Source: a virus. Taken from it: a stretch of 39,873 bases of DNA. The position numbers were made by a program. Location: UHGV virus genome UHGV-0062059. One strand, given 5' to 3'. Of this stretch, positions 3,001-6,000 are shown piece after piece (within the stretch, counting starts at the first letter, position 1; every line of letters starts with the position of its first letter).

Positions 3001-6000
3001 GTGTATCTGTAATTTTAAATAACTCTCCCTGGATAAAATCTTCAGAAGCATAAAAAAGAGGCTGACCCGGTATTCTCTCAAATAAAAAACGAGCATTTTT
3101 AAATCGACTGACATCTGGAAGAGTTGATACTTTAAAAGTAAGCCCTCGCCCATCTATCTTTTCACCACCTGTTGCAACAGAAAGTAATTCTGATAGAGCT
3201 GATGTGTCATCATGAACACCATCACCAATAGCCCCCCAACCTCTTACATCATAACTGTCTCTCCATCTTGCTATCTGAAGTTTTGGGTATTTATTCGCTC
3301 CATCTGGGTCTTCTAATTGCTGCCGTAACTGATCAGGATCATACTTCAGCACATTAGGAAAATAGAACTGCTGCGCACCATACGCATCATAAACAGCCAT
3401 AGAATGGCCTTGCACGGTAACGAATTTGGCAATCTGTCCGTTATATACCGGATATCCAGCAGCGTTAATGATTATTGGTTGCGAAACAGGAATGTGAGAA
3501 CCGTCTTCGTTCTCTACATAAACCTGAATCTGGTTTTCAGGATTTACCGGGTCAGTGTCAATTTTACCGATATAAATTTTGCCATTGGCTACGGCTTTAA
3601 AAGAACGCGCCATAGTGAAGAGTTGCGAAGGCATACTCACTACAACATTGGCTGTAATGTCTGTCATTTAATTTGCTCCAGATACAAGGAATCGCCGCAG
3701 CATTGCCACAGTGATGCATTATTAATCAAACAAAGAGACCACTGTGGTCTTATTGAGGATGCAACCAGCAGATAATAAGATGCCGATCCACTCACAAAAG
3801 CGAGGCATCAAGAATGGGAAGAGATGACCCGCAATTTAATCTGCGGCTACCTTACGAATTAAAGGAAAAACTAAAACAGCGAGCCAAATCCAATGGCCGC
3901 TCTCTTAATTCAGAATTAGTTCAGATAGTGACTGATGCTGTATCAAAGCCATCCAAAATTTCAGGCTATCGAGACGATGCGGAACGCATCGCTGATGAGC
4001 AGTCAGAGCTTGTTAAGAAGATGGTGTTTGATACGCTGAAGGATTTGTACAAAAAACCCACCTGAAGGTGGGTTAATTTTTGCATTTACCTGGGCCATAT
4101 TGACTACTTATAAAATGAGATCAATATTTAATCGCCCAATAACGGGTGTATGTTGAGGTATATCATGGCGAAAAAACCAGGTGAAAACACAGGAAAAAAC
4201 GGCGGAATATACCAAGAAGTTGGCCCCCGCGGCGGTAAGAAAGACAATTTTGCAACCGTCAAGGACAACGAAAGGCTTCCACCAACAACAAAGCCAGGTC
4301 ATGGCTGGGTATTGGATAAGCGAACTCCAGACAGCAAAAAGTAATAATCAAGCCGGGTCACTCCGGCTTTTTGATATGTCGCTCGCAGAACTCAACAAGC
4401 CTGCTCATTAAGTAGCAGTAAGTCTCGTTGGCTCTTCCTGGTTCAACATCAACACCTACCCTTGAGCAGATATCGAATGCCATGTGAGCGCACTCATGGG
4501 CAATAGTAGATAGTTTGCCATTGAACACGCCTATCACATGCAAAACACCATTCTCGCTACTCATTGTATGAGACGCTCCGTTGGCGTCCGAGTCATGCAC
4601 GTCAACGCCAAGTTTTTGATGCAGGCGTTGCCATTCTGGAAAGTCTCTACAAAACACAATTGTACCGCTCTCAAAGAGCGGAACGAGCATCTTTGGTACG
4701 TTTCCAATGTTAACTTTTTTCATGGTATCCTGCGCAAAACTAAGGAGGTTGGTGTGTCTGATTCTATGAGTTACGCTGTGCTAGTTGCCGCAACTCTATT
4801 TCTGGGGATAGGGTTGCAGATTGCGTGGTTCTTTTTTTCTAGTTTTATTAAACGTAAAAGAATTGAATCAAGGATATCTGAGATTTCTATTGCTATAGGG
4901 AAAAATGCTGAAAATCCAGAGAATGAGGCCTGCGCACTGAATTACCTTAAAGAAAAGTTTTCCCCTGAAAAATTTGAAAACAGAATTACTGATGCTCTTG
5001 GATTGGTAATATCAGTAATTCATATGCCACTAAGTTTGCTGATAACAGTGTGGTACTTCGCCATGATCGCCGGAAGAATATTTGGTTTCATGAATATAGA
5101 GCCTGTAGTTCTTTGGGTTCCAATGATACTGCAATTGTTGTTAAGCGTTGCTATCTTTATTTTTTCTGTTTTTATAAAAATTGTCTTCGGAAGATACCCC
5201 GGAGAAGCGAAGGGATTTAATAAAGAATTCATAAAAACTATAAAATAAATGCCGTCCTTGGCTTACAGTGCTACTGCCGGGTAGCTTCGTTAACTAAGAG
5301 CGGGCGCACGGCAGTAGCCGCCTGATTTAGCGCTCTTTCATAAGCTGGCGTTCCAGCTTTAGTGTTTGCCAGACGTAAGAGCGCATTCCTTGCTGCTTTG
5401 GATTCATACAAGCGCATCATTGCACCGAAACCAGCCTCAAGCCCCATTGATACGCCAAGAGTCGTAGTTGCGCCAATCGTCCTTATCCTGTTGGCTTGCG
5501 ATTGCCCCGTCTGAGTTACTACATTTGCGGTGTCTGATCTTGCTGCTTGCTGTAGAACTTCATGAAGAGCATCAAGTTCTTTCATGTGCTTTCCAGAAAA
5601 AATAGTGTTGTAAATTTCACCGCCTGACTGAGATTTCAGCTTATTAACTTCAGTGATGAACTTGGCTGGAGAGTCACCGGCCTTTTCCGCTATTTTGCTG
5701 ACGTAAGCTGCACGCATAGCATCTTTCCCTTTATCATCAAGTGCGCTCCAGATTCGTTTCACGTCAGATGGTTTTCTGCTTAATACAACGGTATTTATAA
5801 GTTCAGGACTGGCTTCACTGCTTGCCTTGTTGAGCTTGTTAGCAATGTTTTTATTAAGCACCTTATTATAAACGTTTGCATAATCGGAATTTGCTTTAAG
5901 GTATTTTGCTGCGTCTGAAGCACCGAGGTTTTTGGCAACTGCGTTACGAAGGTCTTTTGACATTGCATTCTCTACCATATTGGTAGCTGCTTTTGCCTGG

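Follow-up and report, generated by a model that had tools for sequence, protein, structure and literature searches.

What does the small protein encoded between gene 16 and the tailspike gene of P22-like phages do? The question is raised here by UHGV virus genome UHGV-0062059, a stretch of 39,873 nucleotides (the window, meaning this stretch at its full length) that represents a mosaic P22-like (Lederbergvirus, CUS-3-like) prophage. A sequence-only reading had picked out a 121-residue open reading frame (ORF) with an HExxH motif at 4358-4723. This ORF proved to be a real gene on the minus strand, as judged from its match to PHROG 1365, its conservation and the selection acting on it, and it corresponds to hkcC of phages HK620 and P22, a gene known by name and not by function. 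We find that its product, HkcC, carries a gluzincin-type sequence signature. Our tentative proposal, to which we give not quite an even chance, is that HkcC would be a lytic-phase mini-metallopeptidase, with the convergently encoded protein Orf59a as its target in this clade and a host protein as its target in the wider family.

hkcC is a real gene without annotation in the P22 reference record

The features of hkcC in the window are as follows.
4358-4723, minus strand: hkcC coding sequence (CDS), an ATG-to-TGA ORF of 121 residues for a predicted mini zinc metallopeptidase
4484-4498, minus strand: codons H76-E77-C78-A79-H80 of the HExxH motif, with H76, E77 and H80 invariant, in predicted helix 71-88
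4424-4426, minus strand: codon of E100 in the motif G-x-A-N-E-T-x-C-Y, invariant, the putative third zinc ligand
4728-4731, minus strand: Shine-Dalgarno (SD)-like AGGA, 4 nucleotides 5' of the hkcC ATG, read from the sequence

Window HkcC is 99.2% identical both to the HK620 hkcC product and to the product of the P22 ORF, and the protein is 99% identical in P22, HK620 and dozens of Salmonella phages. It matches PHROG 1365 end to end (E-value (E) 1.7e-39, residues 1-121 on profile positions 3-120 of 127); the members HK620 hkcC, ST64T Orf-129 and epsilon34 gp70 are every one annotated 'unknown function'. The P22 RefSeq record NC_002371.2 contains an intact hkcC ORF at 13861-14223 with no CDS annotated, the only features over it lying at its ends, namely the sieA promoter (first 31 nucleotides) and the mnt/orf59a terminator (last codons). 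Record AB426868 likewise lacks the CDS. Both hkcC and '59a' have been named solely as unknown-function genes of the P22 'ant moron' (PMC2629481; PMC4837284), and hkcC is unmentioned in a 2024 study of SieA (PMC10883804). No functional study came to light in a literature search on hkcC, orf59a, YjzC and phage anti-defence of the SprT-like or HExxH kind. Within the literature that can be searched, the placement of hkcC in an uncharacterised zincin family with a putative Glu third ligand, its omission from the P22 RefSeq record and the conserved hkcC-orf59a cassette described below appear to be new.

HExxH alone occurs at chance level, with 3 occurrences in the six-frame translation of the window, and the case for hkcC therefore rests on conservation. 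(The other in-ORF HExxH of the window is at ~28522 on the minus strand, inside ORF 28088-29038, SVHAAHESAHEAAQT.) An exhaustive profile search returned 546 family representatives at E ≤ 1e-3 (50% clustering), 151 of them below 1e-10, and most are 110-130 residues long. When hkcC was compared with homologues of 43-63% identity, the proportion of non-synonymous differences (pN) was 0.24-0.36 against a saturated proportion of synonymous differences (pS) of 0.76-0.90; from the P22 copy it differs by 5 synonymous changes and a single non-synonymous one. No second copy of the family was found elsewhere in the window. These data confirm that hkcC is a real gene under purifying selection.

Could the ORF nevertheless be a frame that arose by chance opposite the sieA promoter region, or a remnant without catalytic activity? 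Its lack of annotation in the P22 RefSeq record and in AB426868 would fit, as would the long shadow ORF that overlaps it on the opposite strand. However, the 546 representatives, the invariant tetrad described below, the purifying selection and a confident AlphaFold2 (AF2) model all speak against this explanation, which we consider hardly credible. In addition, hkcC is 99-100% identical across 80 viral contigs, of which just 13 carry sieA; since it is kept at this identity in the 67 loci from which sieA is absent, it is not the shadow of an overlapping 236-residue frame. We reject a spurious ORF on grounds of conservation and selection. The 236-residue frame itself is a form of sieA given in some records (window 4538-5248, plus strand; GQ422450), which overlaps hkcC antisense by 186 nucleotides. 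It is probably an over-extension, the 164-residue GTG-start form fitting both the SD and the PHROG profile.

HkcC carries a gluzincin-type signature

In a family alignment of 118 divergent members (23-45% identity), the only invariant columns are H76, E77, H80 and E100, with G49 and Y104 nearly invariant. HExxH is kept in 141 of 145 representatives, and 107 of these have a Glu motif, [NSQ]-E-[TAP]-[FY], at +19/+20 after HExxH. E100 sits 20 residues past H80, which is the thermolysin spacing, and begins a predicted helix (residues 100-116). A sequence search of the PDB aligned the HkcC HExxH and 'GRANE' to 'HELTH...GALNE' of thermolysin/neutral protease with identical spacing (E 0.09). E100 aligns with the Glu of thermolysin 'NEAISD'; the third zinc ligand of thermolysin is Glu166. 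Comparison of the HkcC family profile with the PDB returned zincins only, with myroilysin first (E 0.011) and then astacins.

The sequence-only reading had pointed to IAHECAHMAF, which corresponds to HkcC residues 74-83 (HECAH being 76-80), and had taken a downstream C-x9-C-x2-H as a set of metal ligands. The pattern is indeed present as C103-x9-C113-x2-H116, but C103 is invariant among close relatives only, and C113 and H116 are not invariant even there. We reject the downstream Cys and His residues as zinc ligands on account of this non-conservation, Glu100 being invariant instead.

At the level of sequence, the HExxH and Glu set is a gluzincin-type signature. A conserved HExxH on a helix, as in zincins, is found in HkcC (118 sequences; AF2 helix 71-88), and a Glu as candidate third ligand on the next helix, as in gluzincins, is seen at the sequence and secondary-structure level only. 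Likeness to gluzincins of the thermolysin type (M4) thus covers HExxH, the invariant Glu on the next helix, the 20-residue H-to-E spacing and the 'NE' context. In size HkcC resembles the archaeal 'minigluzincins' (~110 residues), its length being that of a minimal catalytic domain. We infer from these features that HkcC would act in the cytoplasm as a zinc metallopeptidase of one domain, from a zincin family that is specific to phages. Zinc would be held by H76 and H80 of the HExxH helix and by E100 of the next helix, E77 would act as the catalytic base, and the substrate groove would be lined by the conserved strand around G49.

Predicted fold and family placement

The AF2 model of HkcC has a predicted local distance difference test (pLDDT) score of 89 and a predicted template modelling (pTM) score of 0.83. 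It runs through strands 11-13 and 21-25, helix 28-37, strands 49-56 and 59-66, helix 71-88 (HExxH) and helix 100-116 (E100), an element order that would be expected of a minimal zincin. Searches of solved structures with HkcC gave no significant peptidase match, and in the Foldseek search of the PDB the sole peptidase-like match of note was SPRTN (6mdx, probability 0.51). Because no significant fold match was found in the PDB, the 'metallopeptidase fold' suggested by the sequence-only reading rests on the motif with its invariant tetrad, on the AF2 topology and on weak profile hits. Among predicted viral structures (BFVD), 26 neighbours were found at E ≤ 1e-3 with template modelling (TM) scores up to 0.83, a few of them named SprT-like or metalloprotease. 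The phages that encode them infect Pseudomonas, Ralstonia, Erwinia, Achromobacter, Serratia, Acinetobacter or Eggerthella, or belong to the crAss-like group.

Pfam and NCBIfam scans of HkcC gave nothing meaningful, the lantibiotic matches being spurious and due to 'HEC', and a PADLOC 2.0 scan of HkcC, Orf59a and SieA gave zero matches at E ≤ 1. Taken together, profile search and structure prediction produced a confident AF2 model with a zincin-like order and reached no Pfam family. Among the relatives, the commonest weak Pfam match is SprT-like (PF10263), seen in 31 of 118 at E < 1 (best 1e-4). The score seen is 15.7 bits, under the 25.6-bit cut-off, and HkcC itself has no PF10263 match. In common with the SprT-like proteins (PF10263; E. 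coli SprT, SPRTN/Wss1), HkcC would have a small alpha/beta zincin core, with '...T-L-x-HE' before HExxH; the sheet, the backing helix and the HExxH helix align in the same order. The third zinc ligand of SprT and SPRTN is a His, whereas HkcC has the invariant Glu100, a variable residue at position 3 before it and no conserved His after the HExxH helix. Furthermore, HkcC ends at residue 121 without conserved CxxC pairs, and has neither the C-terminal zinc ribbon (PF17283) that SprT homologues carry nor a DNA-binding domain.

Of the two families that the sequence-only reading had named, SprT-like is therefore the nearest, at a sub-threshold level, but ImmA/IrrE (Peptidase_M78, PF06114) has no match to HkcC; one relative reaches E 0.099, and the family is absent from the recurrent weak hits. 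We file HkcC, on the basis of its sequence, as belonging to an uncharacterised phage zincin family with a gluzincin-like motif and with SprT-like as the nearest named relative, and as a member of neither of these two groups. Longer members of the family (P0063, P0067, P0116, P0133 and P0150; 173-189 residues) have Lys/Ala/Glu-rich C-terminal tails, for example …KPKKASKPKAKPIKEE…. These tails are probably disordered and could bind nucleic acid, which would fit an SprT/SPRTN-like mode.

hkcC is co-oriented with lytic transcription

The neighbouring features of the locus are as follows.
722-3667, minus strand: tailspike (K1 endosialidase), downstream of hkcC on the same strand, with Pfam Head_binding and endosialidase domains
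3814-4065, plus strand: mnt repressor gene (Pfam Arc, E 3e-22; Repressor_Mnt, E 2e-18)
4693-4723, plus strand: P22 sieA promoter position, inside the first 31 nucleotides of hkcC on the opposite strand, by homology to NC_002371.2
4754-5248, plus strand: SieA-like superinfection-exclusion gene with a GTG start, divergent from hkcC (PHROG 7745, E 3e-106; 495 nucleotides in the P22 annotation)
5271-7112, minus strand: gene 16 (ejection protein), on the strand of hkcC and upstream of it, from homologous P22 and UAB_Phi20 annotation

The tailspike comprises a P22 head-binding domain, an endosialidase beta-propeller and beta-barrel, and a Peptidase_S74 chaperone; as a K1 endosialidase, it marks the prophage as CUS-3-like. 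mnt directly adjoins the tailspike gene, and arc, ant and sar are absent at the locus. Pfam (Arc, Repressor_Mnt) and PHROG 7745 agree with the sequence-only reading that the Mnt repressor and SieA-like genes are neighbours of hkcC, although a 59-residue gene between mnt and hkcC, orf59a, had been left out. The sieA promoter has been located within 85 bp upstream of sieA (PMC10883804).

A promoter scan found no minus-strand promoter-like site within 3600-5400, and a terminator scan found no minus-strand terminator between gene 16 and hkcC (5271 to 4723). Because ant and its promoter are absent here, the essential tailspike gene would need the antiterminated late transcript, and a late transcript running from gene 16 to the tailspike necessarily carries hkcC in sense. 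From this anatomy, read in the light of P22 late-operon biology, we infer that hkcC is made during lytic growth via the late transcript. HkcC would then be synthesised only in lytic growth, its gene being preceded by a ribosome-binding site and lacking a separate promoter. Purine-rich SD-like motifs precede most hkcC homologues, and the DNA upstream is unrelated among them. In the case of the Klebsiella oxytoca homologue, a terminator lies directly in front of the gene.

Genomic contexts of the family

In every context examined, hkcC is co-oriented with the lytic transcription unit. It occupies the gene 16/tailspike gap in P22-like phages of Salmonella, E. coli and Morganella. Siphovirus homologues of 60-63% identity have tail tube/chaperone genes on one side and the tape-measure gene on the other, and no repressor gene adjoins them. 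In a Proteus phage the gene comes after the major tail gene, and in a Pasteurellaceae prophage after the O/P replication genes. The Orf-129 clade (38-42% identity) lies between lysis genes and dec/terminase, and a T7-like phage carries its homologue between the ligase and RNA polymerase genes. In N4-like phages the homologue is among the first early genes, an assignment that we presume from synteny with N4.

These contexts bear on the suggestion of the sequence-only reading that the peptidase might cleave Mnt or C2. According to this explanation HkcC would be an ImmA/IrrE-like anti-repressor protease that controls immunity. ImmA-type enzymes are small HExxH proteins too, and the likeness includes residence on a mobile element near a repressor gene: hkcC lies in the immI region near mnt, and a Proteus siphovirus has hkcC-orf59a beside an Mnt-like gene and two ant genes. 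However, the repressor beside HkcC is a ribbon-helix-helix protein encoded on the opposite strand, and it is dispensable for the association, with near-identical hkcC (99-100%) occurring where mnt is absent, divergent (34-77% identity) or a mere remnant. The cassette is also found in tail clusters without an adjacent repressor gene, and relatives occur in strictly lytic phages; together with the missing Peptidase_M78 match, these points set HkcC apart from ImmA/IrrE. Late-only expression would moreover be mistimed for a lysis-lysogeny switch. Cleavage of Mnt or C2 is therefore very unlikely.

The position of the Orf-129 clade just 3' of the lysis cassette in epsilon34, ST64T and mEp044 raises a different possibility, that of a lysis-accessory peptidase released through holin lesions and cutting an envelope protein. 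In mEp044 the homologue is extended at its C-terminus, and the extension weakly matches the Lpp alanine-zipper (E 0.0012), but this Pfam match is sub-threshold. The hkcC clade itself is not beside lysis genes, the N4-like homologues are early, and inspection of the HkcC N-terminus revealed no signal peptide. A role in lysis thus seems highly improbable. In epsilon34 and ST64T (3001-3390, 3390-3794), gp70/Orf-129 shares one base with the start of the gene that follows, which suggests translational coupling. This following gene bears the annotation 'head decoration protein' and corresponds in position to Dec of phage L; a DUF2560 gene precedes gp70/Orf-129.

A convergent partner, orf59a

Between mnt and hkcC, the plus strand encodes a small protein with its own transcription signals.
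4100-4128, plus strand: sigma-70-type promoter of orf59a, TTGACT-17-AATATT, predicted by promoter scan, with the -35/-10 pair conserved in six further cassettes
4133-4148, plus strand: hairpin/inverted repeat in the orf59a 5' leader (RNAalifold, 5 pairs; weak support)
4165-4344, plus strand: orf59a (59 residues), a YjzC-family small basic beta protein gene between mnt and hkcC and convergent with the latter (PHROG 3202, E 1.3e-31)
4350-4369, no strand assigned: shared hairpin terminator, overlapping the last hkcC codons (…KKPE-stop)

orf59a ends thirteen bases past the hkcC stop codon, on the opposite strand. The terminator between the genes has a strong T-run on the plus strand (the orf59a direction) and a weak one on the minus strand. 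The hairpin is kept in 8 loci that represent different types of phage; the P22 annotation assigns the terminator to mnt/orf59a, whereas that of HK620 calls it bidirectional. Across cassettes the promoter consensus is TTGAC(T/C)-17-(C/T)AATATT. The leader repeat, GCCC-AATAAC-GGGT, is conserved (L009, L011, L012, L014, L015 and L105), with one CG<->UA covarying pair in 3 of 7 sequences, and could be an operator or an RNA element.

Window Orf59a scores 19.1 bits against Pfam YjzC (PF14168), where the cut-off is 25 bits. Relatives at 47-59% identity carry PF14168, and UniRef calls close homologues 'YjzC family protein'. The protein has an isoelectric point of 9.9 and an AF2 model of three strands (pLDDT 88.7). 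It is 64-81% identical in distant cassettes, and pN for orf59a is 0.11-0.23 with pS saturated, which indicates stronger constraint than for hkcC.

The convergent pair, with the genes 5-30 bp apart, recurs in Klebsiella, Rosenbergiella, Xenorhabdus and metagenomic siphoviruses and in Morganella P22-like prophages. It is also present in the Proteus siphovirus carrying an mnt-like gene and two ant genes, and in the Pasteurellaceae prophage (HkcC 46%, Orf59a 64% identity), and is kept down to the most divergent member of the clade (HkcC 43% identity). A 212-residue gene with PhageMetallopep (PF18894), which is metallopeptidase-like and unrelated, stands beside the most divergent cassette (L121, 1330-1968, plus strand; L122). 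Among 5,426 complete E. coli genomes, 208 (~4%) contain the hkcC-orf59a module, 113 of them over at least 80% of the query length; the copies are always annotated 'hypothetical protein', and four are on plasmids.

Linkage of the two genes is asymmetric. YjzC genes are found alone, in an S. bongori prophage and in non-phage contexts; no HExxH gene was found beside the lone YjzC genes, and no YjzC domain was found fused to a member of the HkcC family. Only two deeply diverged copies of the hkcC clade lack orf59a; the one in Arsenophonus is a pseudogene with a frameshift, and the Moraxella ORF is truncated at its N-terminus. Degradation of hkcC where orf59a is missing is suggestive, with n = 2.

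The arrangement could be taken for a toxin/inhibitor-like pair, in which a harmful HkcC would be held in check by constitutive Orf59a, the lysogen being guarded against leaky hkcC expression up to the point at which late transcription prevails. Such a scheme agrees with the placing of a constitutive-type promoter for Orf59a opposite a promoter-less protease gene, with the higher conservation of Orf59a relative to HkcC and with the degraded hkcC of the two deep lineages that lost orf59a. However, intact hkcC exists without orf59a, and YjzC genes are widespread alone, including in a prophage without hkcC, which would be unusual for a dedicated antitoxin. Nor are the genes arranged as in type II toxin-antitoxin systems, since they are convergent, with separate transcription signals, and do not form a co-directional operon. 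We regard a pair of this kind as improbable.

Proposed role and candidate targets

The mechanism that we put forward combines the timing and the linkage described above. orf59a has its own predicted constitutive-type promoter, which points against lytic transcription, and would presumably be expressed from the prophage. HkcC would be made late and would proteolytically remove a protein that is useful in the lysogen or the host and unwanted in the lytic phase. At the same time, late read-through would transcribe orf59a in antisense and so silence it. In this clade the best candidate target is Orf59a, because it is presumably prophage-expressed, is co-inherited with hkcC and would be transcribed antisense by late read-through; as the specific target it is possible but rather doubtful. 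A host protein is nearly as likely, since most other clades of the family are without YjzC.

A number of observations weigh against our proposal. In 10 of 80 P22-like contigs, intact hkcC faces a gene for a 74-residue membrane protein instead of orf59a. One hkcC lineage at 78% identity lacks orf59a, and HK620 orf59a is interrupted by a stop codon. The Orf-129-type, N4-like and T7-like clades are without a YjzC partner, and a family-wide target therefore cannot be Orf59a. Morons are self-contained promoter-gene-terminator inserts, and the linkage could reflect a mere shared terminator combined with a hot spot for moron landing. As regards the enzyme itself, hhalign comparison of the HkcC family alignment with a 20-sequence SprT profile was not significant (P-value 0.0031, probability 10%), the non-significant score covering 80 columns that are collinear through the HExxH helix. 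Comparison with the single E. coli SprT sequence (98% identical to the real SprT cluster) was not significant either.

Several of these points would instead favour HkcC as a protease of host take-over or anti-defence that acts independently of Orf59a. It would cut a conserved host protein, a defence protein or, in the manner of SprT/SPRTN, proteins stuck on DNA, and adjacency to orf59a would be structural only. The family spans phages of many hosts, with most clades lacking YjzC; the N4-like homologue is among the first early genes and the T7-like one lies between ligase and RNA polymerase; and hkcC persists where orf59a is replaced or broken. SprT-like as the nearest family, the Lys-rich C-terminal tails on longer relatives and the flanking sieA slot, a variable cargo site, are likewise consistent with it. 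Against this, at least four phage architectures retain the convergent pair as a unit, with HkcC identity down to 43-63%; the deep copies of hkcC that lack the partner are degraded, and PADLOC gives no match. An exclusively host-directed protease is thus conceivable, although clearly on the unlikely side.

Proteolysis of Orf59a by HkcC would, in concept only, resemble P22 SieB/Esc and BTP1 BstA/aba, in which a prophage factor is paired with a phage function that neutralises it in the phage's own lytic growth; this self-immunity logic is established in the literature. The location of hkcC beside sieA, in a cargo/exclusion hot spot, is a further likeness. In contrast to these systems, no defence activity of Orf59a is known, there is no PADLOC match, and the proposed neutraliser is a protease. 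An extended version, in which hkcC and orf59a would form a two-part temporal switch of many temperate phages and provide protease-based self-immunity in the P22 immI region, with Orf59a modulating the host or excluding phages, is more speculative still and we think it unlikely.

P22 is a reference phage whose immI region has been studied for decades, and yet hkcC is still missing from its RefSeq record and 'unknown' elsewhere. The metalloprotease signature, the large family and the YjzC linkage provide a testable handle on a family found in phages of many hosts. If the protease-partner switch were true, prophages would have a further, hitherto unknown way of shutting down functions that serve them in lysogeny; if the target were a host protein, HkcC would represent a new class of phage take-over or counter-defence enzyme. 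The YjzC family, widespread but uncharacterised, would also be placed in a functional context for the first time. The enzymology, that of a small metallopeptidase, would be ordinary in kind, and the interest comes from the model phage and the unexplained module.

Other observations at the locus and in the window

The 74-residue protein encoded in place of orf59a (L029, L084; 6380-6604, minus strand) is a predicted membrane protein (MISAILSVLLASLF…) with no Pfam match, and its gene is convergent on hkcC at an equal distance. On the other side of hkcC, the 'sieA slot' between hkcC and gene 16 (window 4724-5248) is a cargo-exchange site, with Rap1a-like or ClpP-like genes at other loci. In loci L029 (5782-6186) and L084 (5650-6186), differing ORFs start at the same SD and GTG (…KEVGV, after which they diverge), and variation of the slot was also seen at loci L105-L109, L125 and L126. 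It looks like a defence/exclusion hot spot driven by the promoter inside hkcC. Elsewhere in the window, Rfam identified a lambda cIII thermoregulator element at 32110-32168 (plus strand) and, upstream of the lysis region, two tRNA genes at 21841-21913 and 21922-21993 (minus strand).

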